Positions 2,286-64,000 of a stretch of DNA of 64,000 nt are shown here, piece after piece (position 1 is the first letter of the stretch; each line of letters starts with the position of its first letter). The notes beneath the pieces are model-generated. The model saw only the letters and a list, made by a program, of their open reading frames with translations. It had not been told where the DNA came from and did no database searches. Both the position numbers and the translations under genes were made by a program. This DNA comes from Bispira polyomma (taxonomy: Eukaryota): contig OZ287756.1 of assembly GCA_965649765.1 (NCBI GenBank), forward strand, positions 42,346,001-42,410,000, read 5' to 3'.

Positions 2286-3625
2286 TGGCCAATTTATGTT
2301 GTAGTAAAACTACTAAAAGTAGACCAACCATCTGGACCAATTATTATAAGTATATTATTCATATTGCAATCATGTCATCGGCATAATGTTTTAGCACAAA
2401 GTTTCCATGTTCCATCCCATATAGTTTAGTGTTTACTGCGCTGAGAAGCACATCAGAATCCCTGAATTATTGAGAGATGCTGAGATCTCTCCCGGGGGAT
2501 ATTTAGGATGGTATCGAATTGTTGGTCTTACATCCTCCCATTGTTGCCGCGATCTTTCGGCCGTGGACTATTAAATTACGCTAGTAATTTTCCCCAGTAA
2601 TCCAATTGTTCATCCTGACTTTAATGTGGGGCCCCATATGTAGTCAGGGCATTAATATATAGTATACAAGATTAATGACGGAATCCCCTGGCTTTGTTTT
2701 ACTGAGGAGATCTGAACCTGTGGTTTAATATTTAATATAAGTCTGACAGAGATTTGAGGACATAAAATATAATGTATTGTGAACAAAATATATCGGTCAG
2801 ATATATGTTTTCTTGAGTCATAAAAGTTCCTGTTGCAATTGTCAGAGAACTGGCCTAAAATATTCTATATATTTTCTTGCTCTTTGTGTACTGTGAGTGT
2901 GTTCGATTCATAAAAATTAATAAATTAAATAAAAGTTGATAATATATATTAGGAAATATAGAGATTTTATTGATACTATTTTATTTAATAACTAATAATA
3001 ATAATCATTTACTCTAGTCATCAGTGAATAATTCCTATAGATGAGATACCAATGTTTCACACAATAATTGAATGCATCCTAAAATCATATACATGATTTA
3101 AAGGGAAATAAGTTGGTTTGTATTTGTAGTTGTATTTGTATATGAGCAGAATGCAGTGAGATACTCAGCTCACTATAAGACAATAAAAAAATATTATTAC
3201 AAAAATTGAGAATATGTATATATATATATATATGCCATTTGTGATATTACATATTATTCCTAAAGTTCTATTGATTGAGCGTAAATCACTGCTGCCAAGG
3301 GGGTATATTGCTGTGATTGTCTCAATTATGTAACATTAGTGCATCAGTAACCGCTGTAATGGCTGGCAATTATTGCTTGCTAATTGACATCTTTTAATAC
3401 AAGAGACTATAACTGTAGTGTAAAATTGCATTATACTGTCCTGTTGATGATTGGGATGATCATTTCTAGGTATCTGACTTAGAGAGCAGATGTTTATCAG
3501 TTCCCAGGAACCAGGTATGAGCTAGTTATTTATTTACTTATCAACACAGAGAAAGATTGCGGTTCATAATTTTATTAGTACACTACAGGGTTAAAGCTAC
3601 TATGTACAGTTTTTCATTAAGAAGA

Positions 3626-3956
3626 GGGGCATAAGGTAACCTTAAGAAAGCAACAAATTTTAAGGTCACCATAGAATAAGGAATTGTCAAGATGAGGTTA
3701 CCCTAAGTGAGATTTCAAATTGAAGTTAGGGTGACCATAAGTTAAGAACAGAATAAGGTGACCATAAATGGAATTTTAAGTTTAAGTTTGAGAATACTAT
3801 AATTTAAAGTTTAAGTGAATAAATTAAAGTTTTAATGAAATTTTAAATTTTTTCGAAAATTTTGGCAATTCTAAGTGAAATTTAAATTCAAAGATTTTGA
3901 AAGTTAGATGGAGGAGTACATTATGTGCTCCCCGCAGGAGGGTGACCTTATGCCCC
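3626..3956. repeat. 3'-terminal repeat region of the YR element: 16-bp inverted repeat plus six GGTNACC palindromes
   Basis: GGGGCATAAGGTAACC (3626-3641) pairs with GGTGACCTTATGCCCC (3941-3956) with 1 mismatch. GGTNACC occurs at 3635, 3664, 3696, 3730, 3757 and 3941. Confidence 0.85.
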
Positions 3957-4075
3957 AATATAGTGTGATAATTTAATTTTATTTGACATTTATTTTTCAT
4001 GTTTTAAACATGTAGATTTATAAAGTTTTAGGTGAGAGGAAAAATCCAAACCACCAAGCCCAAAAAAAAAATTTT

Positions 4076-5060
4076 TTAGGAGGTACTTCGTAGGGCAGCC
4101 AAAAAAGAGTCAGCCACCTGGGTGCCAACCAAAGCGGAATCAGTAATATAACGCCAAACACAGTCCGACGTCCAGGTGCCATGTCGCTGAATATCCTGTA
4201 GAGGAACATTATTGTTGAACGCAAACGTGGCACCTGAACGCCGGAGAGAATGAAAAGTCAAATTTGAGTGCTGAAGATTCAGCATCTGTAATATATTCTT
4301 TAGATGCCGTCTACCTCGATTATCCGTCATGGGAACCCATGAATCTTTCAATTTATATTGGAATAAAGGAGCATTCTTGCCAGCAGGAGATACAGCCAAC
4401 ACAGCTCTCAGAGCAGCCACCGGACATAACTCTGAATTCGGAAGAACAGGGAGAGACAGTAGCTTAACAGCATCTTTAGTTTGCATTGTCTTGCTCCATT
4501 TTATCACTAACAGTGCATACCCAGGCTTAAAAAACACGTCTCCCCTGGCCAGATGTTTAAGCGGTGAAAATGTAGCCATGGAATGAGGGCACAAATTTGA
4601 GAGACGTAAAAAACTAAAAAAACTGGTAAGATAAATAGCCTTATATATCAGGCCCATGTAAGTCAGATGACACTTTTGTACTACGCTTAACATTAGTGGA
4701 ATATCGAAGACACTTTTCAACTTTACTTGTAAGGGCCTGTTCACTAGCAAAGCCTGTTATAATACGAGATCCTTGGATCAGAAAACGGTTGAACGTCTAA
4801 ATGAAACAGTATACACTTCGCCTTCACAGCTGATAGATAGTTTGCAATCTAAGAGGGAGATACACAGTTAAAGCTCAAAAATTCAAGAAATGCAAGTAAC
4901 TGGAACACATTCACCTGAGCATTAGGCCAAGCCATAAAGATGGTGAAGGCTAAGAAGGTCTTAAACATGCTGCTGTAAGCAGAAGACATGGACGGGGCCA
5001 GAGCTGTATGCATCCTTCTACAGGCAAGGCTGGTCAGCAAACTTTCCACAGAACTGCGAC
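4076..5060 (-). pseudogene. Tyrosine recombinase (YR) ORF of the retrotransposon, disrupted
   Basis: Catalytic residues are recognisable: FLRLSNL (R), KWSKT (K), FHSLRR (H-x-x-R), HGTW, WRY (Y). The N-terminal part reads ...LLAFLEFL...SPS*IANYLSAVK. There is a premature TAG at 4849-4851 and a 1-nt frameshift near 4755 that joins ORF 4076-4750. Confidence 0.9.
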
Positions 5061-6800
5061 CTGAAATTACAAATTTTATGACAAAAGTTTAGATATCCGT
5101 ATTTACATGTAACAAGGCTTCACTAGTGGGAAGCCACACCACTGGGCCCGCCCATTCATGCAGCAATTGTACATTCAATTTTATTCTGTCCCATCTGGAC
5201 AGGAGGTCTGCGACCTTATTCTTAACCCCAAGTATGTGTATGACCTTCACGTCGATATCAAATCGGCTGGCCCACAAGTAAATGTTTCGAGTATAAGTTG
5301 CCAAAATGGGGTCCTGAGTACGACCACTGTTTAACACACTAACCACGGCCTGGTTATCACATTTGAATAGAACCCTCTTTCCTTGCCAGAGTTTAGCCCA
5401 CAATTTTAGTGCCACTAGAATGTTTATCATTTCCAACGAAGCAATATTATGGTCTGCCATTTCTTTTGGAACAGATAACTTATATACCTGGCCAGCGACA
5501 CATAGAAAATCATCGATGTACGCGTGTATATGCCAGCCTTCCTGGAGCATGATATATCTTACGGCGTCGGAAATTCGCTGAAAAATAGTGGATCCGTTCT
5601 GGAACCCGAACGGAAGAGACCTATCCAGATAGTAAGAATTCCATTTTAGACCCAACAAATCAACATCACCCGGATCAATTGGCACGTGCCTGAATGCGCG
5701 ACTTATGTCGACCTTAAATATCTTGCCACCTTTGCCTAGTTTCTTCATTAGTAAGACTATCCACTGACGGATAAGACAGTAAAAATTTTGTGCCAAGATA
5801 CTCAGTGGGAGAAGCCCCTGTATTCACTGATTCGCCAATTGGCCAGCTAAGGTCCACAATGACCCGCCTGTTACTGGAGCTGGATTTATTACGGGTCATC
5901 ATGGGGGAAAAATGCATGTTTTCTATTGGTGGATCCTTAAAAGGGCCCAGGACAGCACCATGTTTGAACTCCTCATTCAAATACGTATCAACGTGCTCTG
6001 GGAATTCTAGAGCCGATTTGTGATTACTGACGTCTGCTTGGCTAATATTTCCGCGCCTCACATCGAGGGGGAAGCCGTATTTGACCAATAAGGGAAGCTG
6101 CCAATCCCAATAAGATTTTAAGTATTGAAACCACTTTTTCGGATTCAGTTGCGACTTTACGGGTAGCTGCAGTCCCTTAAAATTTTGTCTCCCATCCTTT
6201 CTTAATACTTGATGCAATTTTAAAATGTCCGCACTGTAATTTTCGGCACCACTATCCCAAACCCTACAGCACAAGTCGGACAGGGGAGTAAAACCATATT
6301 CAACCCTATTCTGGCTACGCCATTTGCAGTGAGTTAGATTGCCCTTGGCTTTACACAAAAGTTCTTTCTTGTTAAGTTTTTGCTTCAGGGCCAGGGCATA
6401 TTTGTCATTAACCATATGGTCGTCAGTATCCCCACGAGCTACAGTGACACAGTCAGCCTGCCTAATACTACTATGTTCGCTACTATTTGTTTTCCTTTCT
6501 CTCGTTTTTCTCGCATTCACACGTGAGTGCACAACACCTTCATTACCAGAACATGACACCTGCTGTGCAACACCATTCAGACGTACTTCCATCGAGCCAG
6601 GAGCCATAAACACAGCAAATTTGTTCTTTAACTTTATTTGGTTGTCTGTATTGAGACACACTCCTCCATGCCCCTTTGTTGGCTTTATAAGTGAGAGCCC
6701 AGCCTCGCCCTCCCCAGTGCTTTTCCTCCCCCCACTAGTATTGCCCTTGTGGGGGGTGGTACTGCGGGGGTCTGGCCCGGACCCCACCCTAGGGAGGTTA

Positions 6801-7040
6801 TGACTCTTTTGTCTAGTAAAGGTGCGGCTCTTAATGTGTTGAACGAAATTGGCAATTTTACCACAAGTAGGACTAGCCTCAGATGCTTGTCTGCATTCAA
6901 ATCGCTTTACTATGTCACTATGACTTTTTTGTCTAGTAAAGGTGCGACTTTTAACGTTTTGAACGACATTGCCAATTTTACCACAAGTAGGACTCGCCTC
7001 AGATGCTTGTCTGCATTCAGATCGCTTTACTATGTCACTA
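6801..7040. repeat. 120-bp tandem duplication (40 aa) in the pol N-terminal region
   Basis: 6801-6920 and 6921-7040 are near-identical and encode SDIVKRxECRQASEASPTCGKIxNxVQxxKSRTFTRQKSH twice in frame. Confidence 0.95.
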
Positions 7041-7162
7041 TAACTCTGTTTATACTTCATACCACAATAGTGTTGACACATTTGTCTGCCAATTTTGCTG
7101 TCCAACAATTGAAAATCCTGGAAACCCATTTGAAAAACTTGTCTCAAAAAATCTCTACTATC

Positions 7163-7198
7163 GCCCACTGCATTACTGCAGTGGGCTCTCAGTTTTTT
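7163..7198 (-). promoter_or_regulatory. Putative -1 programmed ribosomal frameshift signal (gag to pol)
   Basis: The - strand reads A AAA AAC (7198-7192, in gag phase), spacer UGAGA containing the gag stop, then GCCCACUGCA-GUAA-UGCAGUGGGC (7186-7163). Pol is in the -1 frame. Confidence 0.75.
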
Positions 7199-8259
7199 GA
7201 TTGTTTTTTGGTACAATTAGCACTCCTGTGCGCCCCAGCACACGTTTCGCATACATGTTTAAAGAAGGTATTTCCACTTTTGTGGCTAAACTGAAATTTG
7301 CAGGAACCTTCCTGATAAAATTTGCAATTGGCCGAGCCCTGCCTCCCCATACCTCTGCTTTTACTTCCACCCCTCGTGAAAGTACTGCTGCTACCACTGC
7401 TTGATACATGCCTCTGGGCATGGGCGCGACGCAACCTATCGAATTTTTCGACCTCTGTCCATTTCAATTTGTCCATTTCCATGGTGGTTAACACCACGGC
7501 ATGGCAGGCTTTGGCGACCTCCCAGGAAAAATCCTGGGAGTCCTCCATTAAGCCCGCCATGTAGTCCAACATAATCTCTTTTATTTCCGGATTTTTTTCA
7601 TCTTGGATAATGCGGGTAAACCCACACACCCATTGACTAAGAGAAAGATCGTCATAACTGGGTCGAGTTTTAAAGTTTCCAGACAACACGTGATTCTGGG
7701 GCCATTCGATCACTTTTTTCACTAAAACATCAACGCCACCCCCTCTTTGTGATTTGATCTTACCTTTTTTCAGATTCTCGTTTAGCTCCTTAAGTTCGCT
7801 AAGACGCTGCTCAACCTGACTTTGGATACTGGTGTTTGTTCGCAGAAACTCAATCGTCGGGACCACACTGTCCATACCAACAGCACCGATTTGATCCGTA
7901 TTTCCACTTCCTACAGTTGCGTCAGTGTTTGAGCCACCACCATTCTGATTTTTACCGTTACTTTGAACAGAATTTTGATCTTTCCCATTACAATTCATGG
8001 GTGCATCCTTCACCAAAGCCGCTTCAGTGAGGAGAACATGCTTGTCAAGCCGACTCATCATTTCACCCATGCTCTGTAATTGCAGTAAAATTTGACTGGA
8101 AACCTCAGCCAGACCGCTGGGAGCAACGAAATCCGCCCCATCAACTAACTCATCCTCGGAAATGGACTCCTCATGTATCACACGACTACATCTGGTACCG
8201 ACTGGTCTGGCATGCCTTTCAAGGCATTTAGAACAACCATACACTTTTACTCGTGGCAT
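7189..8259 (-). CDS. Gag-like ORF1 of the YR retrotransposon (356 aa, intact)
   Basis: ATG start and uninterrupted frame. N-terminal C-x2-C-x3-H-x7-C motif, coiled-coil-like segments, a central YDDLSLSQWVCGF...FSWEVAKACHA block, and a C-terminal Cys/His cluster (CKFYQEGSC...H, HVCETCAGAHRSANC). Confidence 0.85.
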   Translation of the reverse strand: MPRVKVYGCSKCLERHARPVGTRCSRVIHEESISEDELVDGADFVAPSGLAEVSSQILLQLQSMGEMMSRLDKHVLLTEAALVKDAPMNCNGKDQNSVQSNGKNQNGGGSNTDATVGSGNTDQIGAVGMDSVVPTIEFLRTNTSIQSQVEQRLSELKELNENLKKGKIKSQRGGGVDVLVKKVIEWPQNHVLSGNFKTRPSYDDLSLSQWVCGFTRIIQDEKNPEIKEIMLDYMAGLMEDSQDFSWEVAKACHAVVLTTMEMDKLKWTEVEKFDRLRRAHAQRHVSSSGSSSTFTRGGSKSRGMGRQGSANCKFYQEGSCKFQFSHKSGNTFFKHVCETCAGAHRSANCTKKQSKN

Positions 8260-8427
8260 TGTGAGAGACAGTTACAGTTACACTAAAATACTAAAACGAA
8301 TGTAAATAAATGTAAACAAGTAAATTAAAAACAAAACCAAGACTCTCTGCCAAAATCTCCAGTATTAATTCAATGTTGTTCCTTTGCTGACGGTTGGTGT
8401 AAAGAAAGAGATTTCAAATTTTATCGA

Positions 8428-8461
8428 TTTATATAGCGAAACGCAATCAAGCGTGACCAAT
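8428..8461 (-). promoter_or_regulatory. Candidate Pol II promoter of the YR element (TATA + CCAAT)
   Basis: TATATAAA on the - strand at 8435-8428, and a CCAAT box at 8457-8461, about 170-200 bp upstream of the gag ATG. Confidence 0.45.
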
Positions 8462-8464
8462 AGA

Positions 8465-8691
8465 GTTAGCAAGCAGTGCGCTTTACAATCACTGGTCTCC
8501 CACCTCTGGGATCAGCTGGCGTGGGTTCGACTCCCGTTGATGCCTATGTGGGAAAGGTAGTAGTTCCTTACTGTGTGCGGCTGGTTTCACTGTAGAACCT
8601 TGACCAACTGTATACACTGTTTCCTCTAGCGTTCCAACTACCCGTCCCAATATAACCTACTAAAAGGTACTAGAATGGATGTTAAACATCA
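8465..8691 (+). mobile_element. tRNA-derived SINE family 1, copy A (lacks the first ~21 nt and the tail)
   Basis: B box GGTTCGACTCC, and near-identical to the copies at 11638 and 15005. Confidence 0.9.
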
Positions 8692-9223
8692 CATGTCACG
8701 AGCAACCCAAGAGGTTAGGAGTGCAGTCTGTAAGTGATAGAGCATTGACGTAGTCATGTGATGCAGTATCGAATGCTGAAGACTCCATCTAATTTGAGTA
8801 TGTGTGTTGCAACTATAAAGAGGGGAGAACATGCCACTGTGTTTACAGATGATGACATAGTTATCTAAGGATGAAATGTCACAACTACAACTAAGTACAT
8901 GTTATATACTGAACAAAGTCCCAGTCATTGAAAAACATTGTGGAATTTGTAACCAACTACACCTTGGTCAGTATTGTCTCAGTTCAATCAATATCAACTT
9001 ATGATCAGCTCAACATAGATAAATGGCTCAGTTGATCTTGAAAATCAAATTGACATTCTCAAACCTAGGATCAGCTGTATTCACAAACATTTTCAGTATG
9101 TTCTTAGGCTCAGCTAATCAGATTTTTTTAAAGATATTTTCATTCAATCAAATTGGTTGAAATAAAAGTTTAAAATAAGAATCTATGTGTACACCAGCCC
9201 TGATGTGTAAACAATATACTCGT

Positions 9224-9229
<6 letters not shown>

Positions 9230-9256
<27 letters not shown>
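9230..9256. repeat. (TG)n microsatellite
   Basis: Read directly. The equivalent position in the second unit is the N gap. Confidence 0.95.
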
Positions 9257-9261
<5 letters not shown>

Positions 9262-10302
9262 AGTTATTACTGGTGTACTAATAATATGCATAATAAACAA
9301 TTACAAGAACAGTCTGAGGAGCAGCATTGAGTTTGATTTCAGTTGTGCGAGGTGATCTAGGCAATCTAAAGCTACCTACAATTTGCACTGGTCGTACACT
9401 GGTCAGATTCGACCCTAGCGACTTCCCCTACTATGAGCAATCTATTGTGATAATTTTATTTAAAAGCAAATTGTCGCACCAGTCATGCAATGTGGGGGCA
9501 CAACAGGGAGCAATGAACAACCACTAGACACAACCTAGGCATTTTTAACTTGTTGGAAACTTGTATAAATATCAGCTTATGTGCACATTAATAACCTCAG
9601 CTTTCGAGCTCTCCCCATTAGCTTAACTGTTGAAAGTGTTGACTTCGAGAGCAGGAGGTCGACGGATAGAAAGCTGCCCAAGGTGTAACTTTCTTTCCAA
9701 CTATACACTTGATCCTGCATTTTGCATCACCTCAGCGTCACATTGAGATCTCAATTTAAAATCACCAAAGTATAACCTAGGCTAAAAACTAACTACTGGG
9801 TCACTGTATCCTTCTCTAAGGAGTGACAATCTCTTAGCTTACCTCTAGGCCATTAATCCACTCGTTATGCTTGATATTATATGCCAGAGTGGAGAGTGGA
9901 TATAAAATATGAGTATGCACATCAATATTTTTACAAAAATGTTAGCTAGACATTTGTATAACCTAAGACAGGAAGATAAAAGGAAACAATGGTTTGATCC
10001 TTGTGGCAGAAGTTTGAGATGTGGAAACAATTTTATCTAATTATTGTGGTTACTAGCCTATAAATATTGTAGAAATATGCCAACAGGGAGTGGGTTTTTA
10101 CCAATGGATACAACAAGTAGAACACTGTCAATGTACTCCACAAAACATCATTCAACACTTAAGTTGAACTTTGGGGGGTAATTTGAATTTCGTGTAATGT
10201 TGAGTGATTGTGTACAGTTGATTAAGCCTTTACCAGTAAATGTGGTAAATATAGCAGCAATACTTACATGCTACATAGACTCGCAGATATATATATATAG
10301 TA

Positions 10303-10545
10303 CATCCCCATTAATAAATAAATTCCAGCTTAAGTCCAGCAGGAGTTGGCAGTATTCTAGACCAAGGGTCCCTGATCTCTATTCAGTCTGTGATACTGAG
10401 AGCTTGTGACGTCAGAACTGTCATTAAAGTCACTGGCAAATCCACAGAGACTGGAGTTTGATGAGGATTTTAGAACACCACAGAGAATCTACAAGTAATG
10501 TCCAAATGGGGTCTTCTGGAAAAAATTAGTGGAGCCTTAAAGTCA
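10303..10545 (+). repeat. Unclassified interspersed repeat, about 245 bp (also at 13669-13912, 18271-18515, partial 24501-24640)
   Basis: Shared core CTGATCTCTATTCAG...GAGCTTGTGACGTCAGAACTGTCATTAAAGTCACTGGCAAATCC. Confidence 0.85.
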
Positions 10546-11637
10546 GCCTTCCAATATCTAGAAACAAACACTTCTCGGGCTAAAACTCAGTTGATCAATA
10601 TGGTTATTGTAATATATAATTCCAGTAACATCAGGCTATCTCAAAGTACATATTTATTTAAGGTCCTTAGTATGTGTCTGTCAAATGAAAGACATATGTT
10701 TAATTTTGACTCCAGTGGTAAACCTAAGACTATCATGCAAAGGATTCTTGAGTAGTCTGTCTTCAGGATTTTGTGGGAATTCAAAACAGACTCCCTGCTG
10801 TGTCAATATACAACACTCTTGATATGTGTTCTCGTGGAACTCAGACAAAGTAGTGAGGTGTTAAGGTGTGACCTATTTACCAGTTCTGATCATCAGTCTA
10901 CAAGTCAAAATATCCCAGCTGGCTCTGTCTCTGAGCTTGTGACCAAGTTCACTTATCATTGATATGATGAATGGTTAAAATATACTTTATAATGAATTCA
11001 ATGATGTATTAACACTTCGAGGTATTTTATTAATATCACACATACAGGTTAAAACATTTAACAACAGTTGTTACTCTATAAAATTAGTCTTGTTATTTAT
11101 TTACAAAAGAGTTCCTAGTTGTTCCTATGTCACCAACTCCGAATATAGCTATGCTTGACCCCGATGTTAATAAAGAAGTTCTATCAACATGTCCATATGT
11201 GTTCCAGTTCATGGTGTTTTTATTTCTATTTTATTTTACAAGCAATTTCTTATTGCCCACAGCACACACTCATCCATCCCTTTTACAAACCATCATAGTG
11301 TTTGCGATTCTTAGGCGAAGATACCAAGACACTGCATGTCACACACAAAATTTAGTAGGTGAAAACATCTAGACTGGCCAAGGTCAGGTGCAGCAGCAAT
11401 GAGGTTCCTCCAAACGTGATTTGGTATGGTAACCTCACAATGCGTACATCAGTTTATCAAAGCATTGTTGAGGTCAGAAAATTTGGTCTACATGGAAGCA
11501 TAGATCTGCTGACGACAAAAAACTTATCTATAGAATCGTCCGACCTAGAGATCAGTGATATGGAAGCTTAGGCTTAATTTCCATAGGTTTGTGGCATCTG
11601 GTACAAATACTGTTGGTTTCCCTCCAAAGATGTTCAT

Positions 11638-11885
11638 GGGGGCCGCGGTGGCCTAGTGGTTAGCAAGCAGTGCGCTTTACAATCACTGGTCTCCCACCTC
11701 TGGGATCGGCTGGCGTGGGTTCGACTCCCGTTGATGCCTATGTGGGAAAGGTAGTAGTTCCCTATTGTGCGCGGCTGGTTTCACTGTAGAACCTTGACCA
11801 ACTGTATACAGTGTTTCCTCTAGCGTTCCAACTACCCGTCCCAATACAACCTACTAAAAGGTACTAAAGTGGATGTTAAACATCA
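11638..11885 (+). mobile_element. tRNA-derived SINE family 1, copy B (duplication junction copy)
   Basis: A box TGGCCTAGTGG (11649-11659) and B box GGTTCGACTCC (11718-11728). It has the left flank of copy C and the right flank of copy A. Confidence 0.9.
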
Positions 11886-12403
11886 CATGTCACGAGCAAC
11901 CCAAGAGGTTAGGAGTGCAGTCTGTAAGTGATAGAGCATTGACGTAGTCATGTGATGCAGTATCGAATGCTGAAGACTCCATCTAATTTGAGTATGTGTG
12001 TTGCAACTATAAAGAGGGGAGAACATGCCACTGTGTTTACAGATGGTGACATAGTTATCTGAGGGGGAAATGTCACAACTACAACTAAGTACATGTTATA
12101 TACTGAACAAAGTCCAAGTCATTGGAAAACAGTCTGGAAGTTGTAACCAACTACACCTTGGTCAGTATTGTCTCAGTTCAATAAATATCAACTTATGATC
12201 AGCTCAACATAGATAAATGGCTCAGTTGATCTTGAAAATCAAATTGACATTCTCAAACCTAGGATCAGCTGTATTCACAAACATTTTCAGTATGTTCTTA
12301 GGCTCAGCTAATCAGATTTTTTTAAAGATATTTTCATTCAATCAAATTGGTTGAAATAAAAGTTTAAAATAAGAATCTATGTGTACACCAGCCCTGATGT
12401 GTA

Positions 12404-12647
12404 NNNNNNNNNNNNNNNNNNNNNNNNNNNNNNNNNNNNNNNNNNNNNNNNNNNNNNNNNNNNNNNNNNNNNNNNNNNNNNNNNNNNNNNNNNNNNNNNN
12501 NNNNNNNNNNNNNNNNNNNNNNNNNNNNNNNNNNNNNNNNNNNNNNNNNNNNNNNNNNNNNNNNNNNNNNNNNNNNNNNNNNNNNNNNNNNNNNNNNNNN
12601 NNNNNNNNNNNNNNNNNNNNNNNNNNNNNNNNNNNNNNNNNNNNNNN
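12404..12647. other. Assembly gap (244 N)
   Basis: Run of N. ORFs called across it are artefacts. Confidence 1.
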
Positions 12648-15004
12648 AATAATATGTATAATAAACAATTACAAGAACAGTCTGAGGAGCAGCATTGAGT
12701 TTAATTTCAGTTGTGCGAGGTGATCTAGGCAATCTAAAGCTACCTACAATTTGCACTGGTCGTACACTGGTCAGACTCGACCCTAGCGACTTCCCCTGCT
12801 ATGACCAATCTATTGTGATAATTTTATTTAAAAGCAAATTGTCGCACCAGTCATGCAATGTGGGGGCACAACAGGGAGCAATGAACAACCACTGGACACA
12901 ACCTAGGCATTTTTAACTTGTTGGAAACTTGTATAAATATCAGCTTATGTGCACATTAATAACCTCAGCTTTCGAGCTCTCCCCATTAGCTTAACTGTTG
13001 AAAGTGTTGACTTCGAGAGCAGGAGGTCGACGGATAGAAAGCTGCCCAAGGTGTAACTTTCTTTCCAACTATACACTTGATCCTGCATTTTGCATCACCT
13101 CAGCGTCACATTGAGATCTCAATTTAAAATCACCAAAGTATAACCTAGGCTAAAAACTAACTACTGGGTCACTGTGTCCTTCTCTAAGGAGTGACAATCT
13201 CTTAGCTTACCTCTAGGCCATTAATCCACTCGTTATGCTTGATATTATATGCCAGAGTGGAGAGTGGATATAAAATATGAGTATGCACATCAATATTTTT
13301 ACAAAAATGTTAGCTAGACATTTGTATAACCTAAGACAGGAAGATAAAAGGAAACAATGGTTTGATCCTTGTGGCAGAAGTTTGAGATGTGGAAACAATT
13401 TTATCTAATTATTGTGGTTACTAGCCTATAAATATTGTAGAAATATGCCAACAGGGAGTGGGTTTTTACCAATGGATACAACAAGTAGAACACTGTCAAT
13501 GTACTCCACAAAACATCATTCAACACTTAAGTTGAACTTTGGGGGGTAATTTGAATTTCGTGTAATGTTGAGTGACTGTGTACAGTTGATTAAGCCTTTA
13601 CCAGTAAATGTGGTAAATATAGCAGCAATACTTACATGCTACATAGACTCGCAGATATATATATAGTACATCCCTATTAATAAATAAATTCCAGCTTAAG
13701 TCCAGCAGGAGTTGGCAGTATTCTAGACCAAGGGTCCCTGATCTCTATTCAGTCTGTGATACTGAGAGCTTGTGACGTCAGAACTGTCATTAAAGTCACT
13801 GGCAAATCCACAGAGACTGGAGTTTGATGAGGATTTTAGAACACCACAGAGAATCTACAAGTAATGTCCAAATGGGGTCTTCTGTAAAAAAAATGGTGGA
13901 GCCTTAAAGTCAGCCTTCCAATATCTAGAAACAAACACTTCTCTGGCTAAAACTCAGTTGATCAATATGGTTATTGTAATATATAATTCCAGTAACATCA
14001 GGCTATCTCAAAGTACATATTTATTTAAGGTCCTTAGTATGTGTCTGTCAAATGAAAGACATATGTTTAATTTTGACTCCAGTGGTAAACCTAAGACTAT
14101 CATGCAAAGGATTCTTGAGTAGTCTGTCTTCAGGATTTTGTGGGAATTCAAAACAGACTCCCTGCTGTGTCAATATACAACACTCTTAATATGTGTTCTC
14201 GTGGAACTCAGACAAAGTAGTGAGGTGTTAAGGTGTGACCTATTTACCAGTTCTGATCATCAGTCTACAAGTCAAAATATCCCAGCTGGCTCTATCTCTG
14301 AGCTTGTGACCAAGTTCACTTATCATTGATATGATGAATAGTTAAAATATACTTTATAATGAATTCAATGATGTATTAACACTTCGAGGCATTTTATTAA
14401 TATCACACATACAGGTTAAAACATTGAACAACAGTTGTGACTCTATAAAATTAGTCTTGTTATTTATTTACAAAAGAGTTCCTAGTTGTTCCTATGTCAC
14501 CAACTCCGAATATAGCTATGCTTCACCCCAATGTTAATAAAGAAGGTCTATCAACATGTCCATATGAGTTCCAGTTCATGGTGTTTTTATATCTATTTTA
14601 TTTTACAAGCAATTTCTTATTGCCTACAGCACACACTCATCCATCCCTTTTACAAACCATCATAGTGTTTGCGATTCTTAGGCGAAGATACCAAGACACT
14701 GCATGTCACACACAAAATTTAGTAGGTGAAAACATCTAGACTGGCCAAGGTCAGATGCAGCAGCAATGAGGTTCCTCCAAACGTGATTTGGTATGGTAAC
14801 CTCACAATGCGTACATCAGTTTATTAAAGCATTGTTGAGGTCAGAAAGTTTGGTCTACATGGAAGCATAGATCTGCTGACGACAAAAAACATATCTATAG
14901 AATCGTCCGACCTAGAGATCAGTGATATGGAAGCTTAGGCTTAATTTCCATAGGTTTGTGGCATCTGGTACAAATACTGTTGGTTTCCCTCCAAAGATGT
15001 TCAT

Positions 15005-15261
15005 GGGGGCCGCGGTGGCCTAGTGGTTAGCAAGCAGTGCGCTTTACAATCACTGGTCTCCCACCTCTGGGATCGGCTGGCGTGGGTTCGACTCCCGTCG
15101 ATGCCTATGTGGGAAAGGTAGTAGTTCCCTATTGTGCGCGGCTGGTTTCAGTGTAGAACCTTGACCAACTGTATACAGTATTTCCTCTAGCGTTCCAACT
15201 ACCCGTCCCAATATAACCTACTAAAAGGTACGAGAGTGGACGTTAAACATCAAACTTCAAA
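15005..15261 (+). mobile_element. Full-length tRNA-derived SINE family 1, copy C, with 15-bp target-site duplication
   Basis: A and B boxes, a short TCAAA-type tail, and TCCAAAGATGTTCAT at both 14990-15004 and 15262-15276. Confidence 0.95.
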
Positions 15262-17223
15262 TCCAAAGATGTTCATAGAGATATAAAATTTAAACAAATT
15301 CAAATCCATCATTGTCAAATTTTTTGTTGATAAAATTTAAAAAAATATATCAATAAAATGAAGGAAAGTAAGAAAGTCTCTTATTTTCTTTGTCATTTTA
15401 AAGCAACATATAATTTTAATCATGTAACACAGCAGATTCCTTTAACCATTGTAGTTTAAAATCTTGACGTGACCTCTGGGGGGCATATAATCACCATACA
15501 GCCTACTGATTTGTGTTTCTACCGTTAGATTACACACCTGGTACTGAGTTATTACATACACATACAGTTCAACATACTGATTTCTTACTTCTATCTAAAA
15601 AAAGGATATGGACCTCCTGACACACACAATACTGATTTAGTGGAATTATTTCATACAATACTACGTTGTCTTAGGGCGGCTCAAACTCACAATAACTCGG
15701 CCACAGAATGTATATAGGAAAGTTAGCAGTAGACTTACAGAAGATGGAAGCTTCACAAAACAGAAATCTAGATCAACTACTCAGTTCTCTGTTCCTCCAC
15801 CAATAAACTGCCTGTCACGGTAGAATATACAGGTTGAAATGGTGAACTCTAAAATAAACCCAGTCTAAACACCACAACTCTGTTTTTGTACAACAGGAAA
15901 AAGTACAATTACACCAAAACACTGTTTTGTGTAACAGGAAAAAGTACAATTACTAAAACTATGGTAGAAATTATTTCATGTTAAACTCCTGTTTGAGTGA
16001 TACCTATTGTTTAAAACAGGTGCTTCTTTTTAAAGAATGTCCTGTCTGCTTTCTAGGCCACATTATTGAATGACCTTGTTTAATAAATTACTCAGTTCAA
16101 GTTTACATTGGTACTTTATATTCCGTAACTTTTAAATATATATTACATTTATGCACTGAAATTATGATATAAAATTATATTTACATAAAATTGTATCGCC
16201 TTACCTTTATTCGGCTCGGACCATTAATTTTAGAGAAACACCTAATTCTTGGCTATTCTCCTACACATAAACAGATGAATAAAATCAGTCCCTTCTCTGT
16301 AATAAAGTTACTCAACTTGTAAATGTTATATTTTGATGCTCAGATGAATTGCTTAACTATGACATTTAGAAGAAACAAATTAAGCTTTTGCTATATTCTT
16401 GAGCTTGAGGAATTCGTGACACCATTACTTGTGAAACTCCTGCGTGTGTATGTGACCTTACTGCACATAAATAGCGTACAAAGGCTGGCATTGTTAGAGC
16501 CACTTACACATAAGTTCAGGCTATTAGACCATGGCACTGGTGTGACAGAATGTGAACCATTTTGAGGTAAAGTTTGTGTTGGTGAAATCAGCGAGATACT
16601 GTATTGCACAGTGTTAGGCATGCCTTGGTGGTTGTAGAGGTAACATGCTTGCCTCCCATACCCTGCAGTCACGATTCTTGGTAGTATCATTTGTATGTGA
16701 CAGTTGGCAGTGAACTTGCTGGAGGGCGGTGGTTTGCAGTGCACAGATTTCTATTCAACCACACTGTATTGCTTTGCTCCACCAATAAACTGTCCATCAC
16801 GATAGATTATTGTTCAAAATGGCATAAAACTGAAAATAATTTTACCAACATAGTACTACTACTTAATGCATGGCATTTTGATGATTATAGTGGTATAATA
16901 AATTCGACTTAAGTCTCTATTATTATCTAAATTCACCCTTGCAGTTAATATTCGAAAAATAAAACTTGCTATCTTTCCTAATATCAAATTCGACTTAATC
17001 CAGTAGAGAAAAATATATGATGAAAACATTGGATGTTAATGATACCTATTCCTGATGCAAAGAGTGCATGTTACCTTATAAATATGTGAACCTTTCAAAC
17101 AAAACTGTTACTATAGCATTCTTTTTGTTCCAAATGTTATACCAGAGTAGCACAAAGCTGGCAATAAGCTTTAGATTTTGCATACTATTTTGAATTTTAG
17201 TGACCATTGCATCAATAATAGCT

Positions 17224-18909: not shown

Positions 18910-19597
18910 ATAACCATATTGCCAAGGCTTGCCTTGCCTGTTACTATCGTATACTCAACTTGCAACGAATTCGTAGATTCCTCAGCGTTGATACTGCAGT
19001 TCTAGTGCAGTTCTAGTGCAGTTCTAGTGGCAAGGTCACTTGGACTAATGTAACTCTTTACTATATGGGGTCAGTAATGCTAATATTGCCAAACTTCAGA
19101 GTCCAAAATGCTCTCTGTCACATTATTTACAGGCTTGACAGATTTAGTTATGTCACCCCCTACCTTCAAAAGCTCCACTGCCTTCCCAATAAATATCACA
19201 TCCTTTTCAAGTACAACCTGCTGGTTTTCAAGTCTATTACCTACTCCCAACCTCCTTATCTATCGTCTTTAATAAAGTCCAACACCCTCACTCGTGGAAA
19301 TAGGCTATCGTTTTCACTTCACACTGAACGTCAAATTGGAAGGCACAGCTTTGCTGTGGCTGCTCCGGTGGAATGGAACAGGTTGCCACAAAATGTCAGA
19401 TCATAGCAGACAATATCGACTTTTCAAAGCTAGCTCAAGACTCACTTGTTTAGACTGGCTTATCCCCACCTTAGTTACTTCCTGGTTGGCGCTCACTGGG
19501 TAATGACCTCTGCTTGATAATGAACAATCCATTTTTGGAACTCATTAGACAATTCTTATCAATTTTGCGCTATATAATTGTTTCTATTATTATTATT
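18910..19597 (+). mobile_element. 3' fragment of an L2/CR1-group LINE (ORF2 C-terminus + 3' UTR + (TAT)n tail), decayed
   Basis: Broken translation LQRIRRFL...CNSLLYG...KLQ-VQNALC...LQKLHCLP...PPYLSSLI...SFAVAAPVEWNRLP...LKTHLF. Ends GCGCTATATAA...TATTATTATT. Confidence 0.85.
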
Positions 19598-29510: not shown

Positions 29511-29558
29511 AGCTATAAAACAAGTAAAATATTCCTATTTCGTGCTCTTGGGCTTCTT

Positions 29559-30117
29559 GGAGGCCGCGGTGGCCTAGTGGTTAGCAAGCATTGCGCTTCA
29601 CAATCACTGGTCTCTCACCTATGGGCGGCGTGAGTTTGACTCCCGTCGAGGCCTATGTGGGAAAGGTGATAGTTCCTTACTGTGGGCTGCTGGTTTTAGT
29701 GCAGAACCTTGATCAACTGTATGCAGTGTTTCCTCCAGCGTTTCCAACTACCCGTCCCAATATAACCTAAACAGGTACTAGAGTAGACGTTTAATATCCC
29801 AATTCAAATTCAAATTCTATGGTATGTATTAACTTAGTTGATGGCTCTATGGTATGTTATAACTTAGTTAACTGTGGTATATCTTAAAGTAGTTAATGGT
29901 TTTATGGTATGCATGAACTTAGTTGATGGCTGTATAGTATGTATTAACTTGGTTTGCTGCATACGGTAAAACAATACACATCCCTAACATTGAATTAGGG
30001 TGCAACGTCCGGTCATAGTTGCATGAAGATCGTATATCAGAAAGTGTAATTCACTATTTTACAATATAACCTAAACAGGTACTAGAGTGGACATTAAATA
30101 TCCCAATTCAAATTCAA
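29559..30117 (+). mobile_element. Composite insertion: full SINE family 1 copy D (29559-29817), an inverted minisatellite-bearing segment (29817-30060), then a second SINE 3' end (30062-30117)
   Basis: A/B boxes and a (CAAATT)n tail. About 55 bp of the SINE 3' end is repeated. The whole unit is flanked by CTCTTGGGCTT at 29545-29555 and 30118-30128. Confidence 0.85.
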
Positions 30118-59805: not shown

Positions 59806-62301
59806 TAAACTTTAGTGTCAAGTAAGAGTACACAAAACAAGTGCAGTATAGGTCTACTGTGTAAACTTAAGTGTCAGGTAAAAGGTCACAATAGAAGTGC
59901 AATAAAGGAACAATAGTGTGTGTAATATACAGCATTTTGTTTGCAAAAAGCGCCAACTGCTTCGTAAGAAATATATTTTTAAGATACTATTTTATTACAT
60001 ATATACAGTCGTTAGTAAATAACTAAATACTATAATGTTATTTGGGCTTTACAATGTATTAAGAGGAGACATCGAGGCTTTTGTGGTATTAGTTCTAAAT
60101 TATGTGTAATAGTTACAGTTGACTCAGTGTTAATTAATGATAATTATTTATATGGAACTAATTGGTATTATAAATATTGATGTATCAATAATGTATCAAT
60201 AATCAGATAGAATTAGTGTGAAAGTGGTTAGTTATTGCTGTCAAGAAAACAATTGATCTGGTAAATAACAATTGTTAAGTTTTTCATTATTGTAAGGTAT
60301 CCTATATATAGAACTTAATACAGTGCAACTTTTATTTATCCGAACATGTTGGGAGAGTAAGGTTTGGATAACAGAAGGTTGATAAAACAGAAGAGGTATT
60401 TCAGTACAACACTATAGGTTAACCTAAATATGGGAGATTGAAAATGAGTTCATTAAATTGAATATTAAAAAACACAAGTTTGGATGATAGAGGCTCTCCT
60501 GAAGTCACGCAATGGAAACTCTGCATCACTTGATAGTATTTATTGTACTCCAGTTAATGTGTAACTTCAAATGTAAATTGTCTGTTTAGATTATTAAGAC
60601 TGTTATTAGCCTGCTATAAGCCTATTGAGAGTATTACTACTGTACACAATACCACTGTAGTTAGACTTAACATGAGCAATAACCCTCTTCTTGTTCTCTT
60701 GATTCTCTCAATAAATCCCCTCCTACTACTGAGCCATGAAGTGTATGTGGGGGGGGGGAGTAAATGAGAGGGGGGGAACTCATAGGGGGTGTGAATAAAT
60801 AAATAGTTGTTGACGCTCAGACAACTGACAATAAATCCCCATAGTTTGATTCCTCATCAGTTCTGTAACTTAAGCTGGTACCCTGATAGATCTATAGTTT
60901 GCTATGGTCAAAACAAAAAGCCTTCTTACACACAGACAGTTTGTAGCAACTCTCTCAGTTGGGAAACCAGCCGAAGAATCCAATAGCTTGAACTGCTCAT
61001 CCCTTATTGGTAAATCTCTGGGTGTGGAGATTGCTTGCTGAGTATGTGTATAGCAACACTGGAAGCTACACTCTGTCTCTGGCAAACTACTGCAATAGAT
61101 TGGCTCAAAGAATTTTTTTATTTAAATAAAAAAAGTGTGCTAACAAAATTTTTCGTAAGCTGGTATATTGTCATTTTCTCCTGCAGAAGTGGGATATACC
61201 ATCAGCATAATATACAAGGAATATCTTTTACAGGAGGATATATATAATGTGACTCTGATTATTCAGTGAAATTAATTAAAATGGATAGAAATATTTTCTC
61301 TCTCCACAGAGAGTGGCAGATACATAGAGTGCGTGTAACAATCATGGGATAGACTGTCTCACCATTCAGGATACAGAATTGTTTGCAATGAATATAGAGT
61401 CAGAGGTTTAAAGGAATTTTGTTTCTTTGTGTGAGTTAAGGTCAGTCAAAGGTGTATAATATGTCGGCTGATTGAAGTAATATATAATAGATATAATATA
61501 ATAGATATTATGAAGATGTAATGGATGTTAGAAAATCTTTGTGGTGAGAATATTTTTGTTTGGGTTTTTTTCAAGAAGAAAACAAAGCACTGTTATGCCA
61601 TCTTACAAATGAATAAATTAGTACGGTGAACCTAATTTTAAAATGAGAGAAAAAAATACCTGAAAACGAATAGAATTGAAAAGACATTTACGTCATACTG
61701 CATTGATCATATATTTGTCAAACGAATATTTGCTTCATACACAATATGTATGCATTAAGAGACTGTATATGTGGGACATACACTACTAATGATTGGAAAC
61801 TGCTTTGTAACAATTTTTTTTATTAATATTTACTAGGACATCAATAGAGATTTGATTCCTCCTATTCGACATCTCAAATGACAATCATTAAGTTTACCCA
61901 AGTTGGCTTATTCTCTCTCTATGTGTGTGTGTGGTTTTATATGCAAGGATCTAATTTCCAGTCCAATTTCTGCTATTTTATCAAGGCCCGTCCTTCTATG
62001 TGCAAAGAGGGTAACAAGCCACACAATGAGGACAACATGAAGCAGAGGCTTTTTTTCTTGAATTTACCAATAAACAGGAGCTTTTTTTTCATCCGTTAAG
62101 CAGTGTATATTTGCGGCGGTTTTGTTCCCCTTCTTTCAATGTGTAAAGATTGATTTAATCCGGAGAGTTTGGCAAATACCTGGGCGCCATGTCAGTCAGG
62201 TTAATCATTTAATAATCGGTGGTGCTGCCCCAGTAATGCCAGTACTCATGCTTTTGTGGGGTAACAACACTCCTAGTAGAAGGTCATCATTTCTATCACA
62301 G

Positions 62302-62776
62302 CCCTCTCTTTATGGAAGTAATAGCACACTACATAGCATCTACAATGAACGTACCAGGATGTCCAGTGTGTCGGAATCCGAGAAGGAGTCTCCCACAGTT
62401 GGGCAGCCCAGAACACCGCTACCCCAACAACAGCGTTATCAGCTGCCTAGCAAGCCCAAGTCACGGAGTATGTCTAATGTTGGAGTGGTGCATTGTGGGA
62501 AGAGGAAGTGCAGCGACTGCACTCCCACCTTGTCTCTGAGGTCTCTTCTCTCACCCAAACAGAATGGAGTACGTCGCTACAGCACCGCGGATACTTCCCT
62601 GGGGGGACGGAGTCACAGCACCATTCAGAGACACTCCAGGAAGTCGAGTATCTCCCCGGCAACCACCCCAACCTCACCCAGAACAAGGAACAGCCTCTCC
62701 CCACCCCCCATGGGCTTCTGTGGGAGTCACGTGAGGAGTAGCACTGACTTAGGGCGAGGCCTATGTGTGCCAGCAG
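62302..62776 (+). CDS. Ser/Pro/Arg-rich coding exon of the host gene (could instead start at ATG 62236 or 62248)
   Basis: GC-rich part of ORF 62122-62796. Acceptor TTTCTATCACAG| (AG at 62300-62301, phase 0) and donor GCAG|GTGGGG (GT at 62777, phase 1). Confidence 0.7.
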
Positions 62777-63492
62777 GTGGGGAAAAACACTCATAAACAG
62801 TATTAATCATGTAGTATTGCAGTAAATATCGACATTTTTGTGAATTATTTAGGTTTAAGTCTTCCTTCAAAATAATACCATTCTCTGGTCTTGTGGGGTT
62901 TTTTTTTCTAAAACTCTGAATTTATGTTGAAAATTTTATATCTCATTTTCAAGATTTTATTTTAATTATTAGGAAAGTAGTATATAAGTCATTCTCTGGT
63001 GGTTCTCTGATGCAATATAGCTTTAAGTTAATAAGAAATAAAACAAGTGATCAGTAGAATCATTGGAGTTAATATTTAGATATAACATTCATTCCAAAAG
63101 AAATTAATATCAATTAAAATAATTATTGGAAATAAAAGACACCATTTAATATGACATGAGCCAGGAGCCGGTTATCTAAATTTACCAAATGTTAGTATTT
63201 ATAAGCTGTATGTGCTTGTATAGCATATTTTTGTAAATATGATTTCAGCACAGCAGTGACAAAAATAATAGAACCCTCAATAAACAGGTTAATCGGTAAA
63301 AAAAAAACAATAGAAAAGTTTTACAAGAAGGAAACATGAGATTTGAAAGTAGTTGTTAGTGTTGTAAGTTACTGAAAAGACAGACAACTGGTTATCCATT
63401 AGGTTACTTATAACTCACCACAAGTACTTGTAAAGCTATGTCTTCTATTTACTGCAATACTGTGACTGATTGGTACTCTTTATGCCCAACAG

Positions 63493-64000
63493 ATAACATG
63501 ACTGCCAGTGTCAGTGCGGATATTTTCCCTATGTTTCCCCTTGAACGTTGCAACAACAATGTCAGTAAGAGTTTCCTCTTGTCAAATGGTGACATAAGCA
63601 TTGCCGTACCTGAAATTATTGTGAAGCGCGATAACGAGCACCAACATGACGCAGAGCAGACAAGTGATAATGGTAATAAACCTAGTGATAATAACAGCCA
63701 GAAATTTGCAGTCTCTAGATCTGTCTCAAAACGGGATCTGGCATCTCCGACAGCTGGCCAGTTATTGTTTCCTGCTAATGCAGAGGGACACCAGAGTGAG
63801 TCTGGATACAATACATTAATTACGCCCAAGCAGCAGCAGCAACCGCATCAGTTCCATCATCATCATGGCTCGATGTTCAGTCTGTACGAGGACAAGAGAA
63901 CTGATAACGAGAGGATCGTCCTGCAACACATGACCAGTGATGTGAGCGAGGAAGGCACCGTCCAGGTCAATCACACCAGGAACGAGCCCAGATTACTGAG
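63493..64000 (+). CDS. Next coding exon of the host gene, running off the window (DNMTASVSADIFPMFPLERC...VPEIIVKRD...QQQQPHQFHHHHGSMFSLYEDKR...EPRLL)
   Basis: About 169 codons with no stop. The acceptor CTCTTTATGCCCAACAG| (AG at 63491-63492) is phase 1, in frame with the donor at 62776. It is missing from the ORF track because it has no stop inside the window. Confidence 0.75.

Follow-up and report, generated by a model that had tools for sequence, protein, structure and literature searches.

Retroviruses make Gag and a recoded Gag-Pol from unspliced RNA, and env from a spliced RNA. Between retroviral Env and Gag, a few residues at most are common to both. A different use of splicing has been described for plant Ty1/Copia elements, in which, according to the accessible part of the report, a spliced subgenomic RNA makes Gag alone (PMC5580714). 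Ngaro retrotransposons are presented with overlapping or shifted ORFs in the available sections of several papers (PMC4157794, PMC3783388, PMC9210276, PMC8547959). For their start-less tyrosine recombinase (YR) frame, the view in print, as far as the accessible text of PMC13003380 quotes Poulter and Butler 2015, is that YR is probably made by a frameshift in the overlap with the reverse transcriptase/RNase H (RT/RH) frame.

A full-text literature search found neither a gag-to-YR splice nor a gag-pol recoding signal for Ngaro in the available portions of the papers, which included PMC7192593, PMC2632668, PMC4157794, PMC13003380, PMC9210276, PMC3783388, PMC8547959, PMC3212892, PMC5890265 and PMC8226300; an earlier description may exist in the founding papers, supplements or Repbase. 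DIRS-1 of Dictyostelium, in the part of PMC7192593 available, is likewise a YR retrotransposon with gag, RT/RH and YR, and it differs from the element described here in having a methyltransferase, inverted terminal repeats and an ICR.

A defective Ngaro-like element in Bispira polyomma

On its minus strand, the window (the whole 64,000-nucleotide stretch of B. polyomma DNA that was analysed) contains a Ngaro-type retrotransposon that spans about 8468 to 3500-3530. The frames on this strand are ordered gag, then RT/RNase H, with YR last. The gag ORF (7189..8259, minus strand) encodes 356 aa and has 20 relatives at 35-50% identity. The pol ORF (5089..7216, minus strand) lies in the -1 frame and comprises a long N-terminal region, an RT with a YIDD motif and RNase H, with profile matches to RVT_1 (E 3.9e-8) and the RNase H-like RVT_3 (E 1.1e-7). 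The YR frame (4076..5060, minus strand) is in the same frame as RT/RH and carries the R, K, HxxR and C-terminal H/Y motifs; its match to Phage_integrase (E 1e-4) is below the curated cut-off of that profile. The long N-terminal region of pol is poorly conserved and contains a 120-bp in-frame tandem duplication (6799-7047).

The order of the three frames on one strand and the absence of a methyltransferase are features shared with Ngaro as described in the available sources, and on this basis the element is best filed as Ngaro-like. No methyltransferase was found in the window element, in four whole pol frames of relatives or in the protein P0002. The window element leaves little room for one, as the splice acceptor described below lies only 28 nt past the RNase H stop (5091-5089). 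The inverted terminal repeats and ICR of DIRS1-like elements were not found in the window element either. Unlike a complete Ngaro, in which the promoter region recurs as A2, the window copy does not contain the split direct repeats (A1-ORFs-B1-A2-B2). These may have been lost, or collapsed in assembly. A relative, L003, resembles the described Ngaro arrangement in this respect, with a 211-nt direct repeat that holds the promoter motif before gag and again after YR, as A1 and A2 would. Long repeats are present in L004 and L015, and the full B1-A2-B2 order was seen in none of the relatives. The SGNH hydrolase ORF, optional in Ngaro, is absent from the window copy. In the locus L023, a GDSL/SGNH hydrolase frame (865-1533) adjoins a decayed YR.

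The summed depth of three public runs, which look like DNA, reaches hundreds to thousands over the element and 14-43 in the left flank, which marks the element as a member of a multi-copy family. The sequence at family depth stops somewhere between ~3496 and 3528. The window copy is defective (dead). In pol, the reading frame shifts near 5740 and sequence has been deleted internally near 5495; measured against the protein P0001, ~130 residues after YIDD are missing. The YR frame is interrupted by a stop at 4851 and shifts near 4755. The preliminary description, which had drawn its reading from a single defective copy, was correct that the copy is defective, and the splice and the frameshift are now backed by conservation in relatives.

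The Gag protein consists of an N-terminal Cys/His motif, a long helix (50-85), a second helix (143-163) and C-terminal Cys/His motifs. An AlphaFold model of Gag places a low-confidence linker at 166-175, followed by a confident helical domain at 176-289. A search of solved folds gave no match (best Foldseek E 1.3, best Z 4.8) and so does not support calling Gag 'capsid-like'. Scans for Gag in viral, metagenome and prokaryote contigs gave no hit, and phage records likewise gave nothing.

Predicted splice sites joining gag to YR

A phase-1 donor, AAG/GTAAGA (7758..7766, minus strand), is located after Gag residue 165 (7764/7763), where the predicted linker begins and the AlphaFold model predicts a domain boundary. 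A phase-1 acceptor, TTTCAG/GT (5058..5085, minus strand; cut at 5061/5060), follows the RNase H stop. Between them lies a predicted GT-AG intron of 2703 nt (5061..7763, minus strand), which takes out the C-terminal half of Gag and all of pol. As both sites are phase 1, the joined exon is in frame with YR. The signals for the intron of the preliminary description are present in the window and are kept in relatives.

The signals, their frames and their conservation are established, and a scheme of expression can be predicted from them. It is probable that an intact copy would make three products. The unspliced RNA would be translated into Gag. The same RNA, with -1 slippage at A AAA AAC, would give Gag-Pol. 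An RNA spliced from 7764 to 5060 would encode a GagN-YR fusion of ~490 residues, 165 of them from Gag. The shared N-terminus, with its Cys/His motif and long helix, may carry YR into the Gag particle, just as Gag carries Pol. Fixed donor and acceptor sites give an exact junction that can be checked in host RNA-seq. If the RNA is spliced in this way, it would explain how such elements make the enzyme that inserts them and would hint at the route of this enzyme into the particle.

The acceptor evidence comes mainly from relatives. On the simple ad hoc scales used for splice scores, the window acceptor scores 6.7, below the control mean of 7.7, and the case for it therefore rests on positional homology and not on its own strength. 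Of 17 non-redundant elements, 16 have as their best-scoring AG in the 180 nt before the aligned YR anchor a phase-1 site that lies 18-22 codons from this anchor (p 2.7e-7, with 1/3 expected). In the seventeenth, L004, the homologous site ranks second. Control windows inside YR have a phase-1 best AG in 33/76, so the real null is somewhat above one third. The elements were drawn from a YR-profile scan that gave 27 loci; 19 of these plus the window were used for the acceptor, with 3 near-duplicates dropped from the count, and the other 8, which had lost their YR start or carried a decayed one, were set aside. The loci of the relatives stem from a small number of samples and cannot be counted as independent. 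By eye, unrelated YR clusters have the same run of pyrimidine codons followed by S/T/A/P-G/D/E.

The window donor has the top score among the 79 GTs in gag. A phase-1 WG/GTA is present in a 40-codon linker window in all ten gags with DNA (other phases 0), against a background expectation of 0.14 per linker window; these windows were set after the sites were known, and the site is ~25 codons further on in L013, L015 and L016. Over whole gags, the linker donor ranks first or tied first in 6/10 and falls outside the top four in L010. The donor column of the aligned Gags reads K, R, P or S followed by G in 90/99 rows, and this conserved Gly may be kept for protein reasons. Five relatives (L002, L003, L004, L015, L016) combine both sites with an uninterrupted YR, and in these the YR frame stays open for 320-328 aa past the acceptor.

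The 5060-7764 joint was absent among the 15 joints listed, out of a set with 55 more, in the three DNA-like runs. The donor, acceptor, slip site and hairpin are untouched by 40 listed sequence differences (there are 895 more), an observation of little weight. No protein of GagN-YR length was present among the proteins of relatives, which look like intron-blind ORF calls. Scans for YR in viral and prokaryote contigs gave no hit.

A splice from GagN to Pol was also considered and rejected. There is no consistent acceptor in the first 600 nt of pol, where candidate sites are mixed in phase and position, with 4/10 in phase 1.

Relative to the RNase H stop, the open YR frame may overlap by as much as 55 nt or lie up to 761 nt away, and it occurs in all three frames. 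This variation bears on an alternative, closest to the view in print, that YR is the end of a Gag-Pol-YR polyprotein produced by recoding at the end of RNase H (a frameshift, or TAA readthrough in the window), with the splice-like sites incidental. The arrangement of some elements would suit it: in the window, L012/L013 and L018, the RNase H stop is followed by an in-frame YR, the two frames overlap in L004, L010, L014, L015 and L016, and fungal YR is in frame or shifted according to the available text of PMC3783388. P0001 and P0002 are RT-RH-YR fusions in a single frame; both are single-member clusters and may be lesions or real fusions. In L002, L003, L007/L011, L008 and L009, however, 204-761 nt separate the RNase H stop from YR, and the frame offset varies among relatives, whereas the distance and phase of the acceptor stay fixed. 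Given this variation, neither frameshifting nor readthrough can account for YR in every relative, and a frameshift into YR, as suggested in print, cannot be the general route. A polyprotein of this kind is considered unlikely.

Just as unlikely is the use of the acceptor with another donor, in a 5′ leader or elsewhere, perhaps with Pol spliced too, which would yield a YR without the 165 Gag residues. Each gag holds several phase-1 GT sites that could serve. Splicing from a non-coding leader, though, would leave the YR of most relatives without a start, the linker donor scores best in the window gag, and the mixed acceptors at the start of pol do not suit a spliced Pol. Slightly less likely again is expression of YR from its own internal promoter or by reinitiation at its own ATG, for which the long spacers of some relatives could hold a promoter and an in-frame Met is found 6 codons before the anchor in the window (ATG 5013), L004 and L005 and 20 codons before it in L018, since these are the only 4 of 17 elements with a Met within 22 codons of the anchor, the other 13 have none, and the phase-matched gag donor would be left unexplained.

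Probable Gag-to-Pol recoding and the comparison with retroviruses

The predicted splice from gag to YR is a conserved trait across the relatives, and the route from gag to pol, as read from their sequences, differs among them. In the window, a slippery heptamer A AAA AAC (7192..7198, minus strand) stands in the zero frame directly before the gag TGA (tca aaa aac tga). It is followed, after a 5-nt spacer, by a perfect 10-bp hairpin (7163..7186, minus strand), the predicted stimulator of -1 frameshifting. The hairpin has a stability of -21 kcal/mol (z -6.2) and none of 200 shuffles fold as well. In the -1 frame, pol reads open from 7216 onward, through both the slip site and the hairpin. The features of a -1 signal, namely an X XXY YYZ heptamer in the zero frame, a spacer of 5-9 nt, a stable stem and an open -1 frame, are all found here, as the preliminary description had proposed. 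The predicted -1 frameshift signal is well supported in the window copy, from which the hairpin is known.

At the protein level, 111 Gag-like proteins, many of them near-copies, included 62 Gags with an intact C-terminal knuckle. The C-terminus of 51 of these 62 is K-N or K-N-E, and the residue preceding K-N is A, S, T or P in 51/51, as C-A AAA AAC would require. Ends of the [ASTP]-K-N type were found in 15 of the first 20 Gag cluster representatives. These ends are compatible with frameshifting in the relatives.

A second arrangement is present in all nine metagenome relatives with DNA of both gag and pol (L002, L003, L004, L006, L010, L013, L014, L015, L016), in which the two genes are in one frame and split by a single TGA. 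This TGA is a likely site of UGA readthrough; several of the nine have C as the next nucleotide and some have a stable downstream stem. The co-occurrence of both signals as a rule of the family, raised in the preliminary description, does not hold, as the nine relatives keep the splice sites but have the TGA and no frameshift. The frameshift looks specific to a clade, known here from the protein ends of relatives. A Gag tree of the relatives, of weak resolution, has 2 changes between the frameshift and TGA states. Studies of recoding thereby gain a group with candidates for both -1 frameshifting and UGA readthrough.

The scheme predicted from sequence for the window element resembles that of retroviruses in its use of unspliced RNA for Gag and Gag-Pol and of spliced RNA for the third frame, and in that -1 frameshifting and stop readthrough would both be used among relatives. 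The parallel with retroviral env that was drawn in the preliminary description is apt as an analogy in scheme but not in the product: the spliced product here would be the integration enzyme and would keep ~165 Gag residues. Neither a protease, a DDE integrase, an env nor an LTR pair was seen in the window element. As in plant Ty1/Copia, alternative splicing would set the ratios of retrotransposon proteins, with the difference, as far as PMC5580714 is accessible, that the spliced RNA of the window element would make an enzyme fusion.

Overall, the observations of the preliminary description are partly confirmed and its interpretation is partly supported, with the splice as its strongest and most general part. 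For Ngaro as a whole, the chances are about even that GagN-YR comes from a pol-skipping intron, that GagN loads YR, that -1 frameshifting and UGA readthrough have been swapped, and that a retrovirus-like scheme was reached independently. If this is true, the annotation of Ngaro YR frames would change.

Candidate promoter, termini and flanking sequence

A candidate promoter (8428..8461, minus strand) combines a reverse CCAAT box, ATTGG (8461-8457), with a TATA motif, TATATAAA (8435-8428). This pair, already recorded in the preliminary description, turned up in 0.1% of cases when the 5′ end of the element was shuffled 1000 times. The first ATG downstream of it is that of gag (8259), with none earlier. 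Among 10 loci examined, ATTGGTC..TATAAAT is also present upstream of gag in L001 and L003, with a looser match in L010. A single promoter for all products is plausible, and all of the predicted RNAs would start there. As the window copy has no second (A2) repeat, how the full RNA ends cannot be read from it. In L001, L006, L010 and L013, a same-strand gag lies ~0.3-1.2 kb after YR; these are tandem copies or collapsed repeats.

The 3′ region (3526..4075, minus strand) is AT-rich, 550 nt long and holds no copy of the 5′ region. The proposed poly(A) signal at 3571-3576 is indeed an AATAAA, but it is one of four in this region (starts at 3994, 3983, 3576 and 3534) and the motif is at chance level: shuffles carry 1.6 on average, and 81% of the 300 shuffles have one or more. 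The region also contains six GGTNACC palindromes at 3635-3947, five of them spaced 27-34 nt, where 0.06 would be expected. This array is not kept in relatives, which have at most 2 per locus. The region folds no better than shuffles, and an Rfam search gave nothing meaningful.

The 5′ junction is marked by a 5-nt TAACT (8464..8468, minus strand), and a second TAACT is found at 3528-3524. With some uncertainty, TAACT at both ends may be a recombination core; the flank contig starts at 3525, an inexact fit to such a core.

Three long open frames elsewhere in the window have no Pfam match. Two (62074-62793 and 63414-63998) look like host-gene exons and the third (19017-19403) looks like a LINE fragment.

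The element's 5′ end abuts a tRNA-like SINE that lies outside it in the flank (8465..8691, plus strand) and is without its first ~26 nt. SINE homology ends at 8465, and the element meets the SINE inside the A-box region. This SINE is of very high copy number, with other copies in the window at 11633-11887, 15000-15267, 29554-29814 and 2186-2285. SINE copies also stand at the borders of a ~3.37-kb tandem duplication (8465-15252), which has an N gap (12404-12647) inside it and a depth of ~2x the left flank in the three runs.
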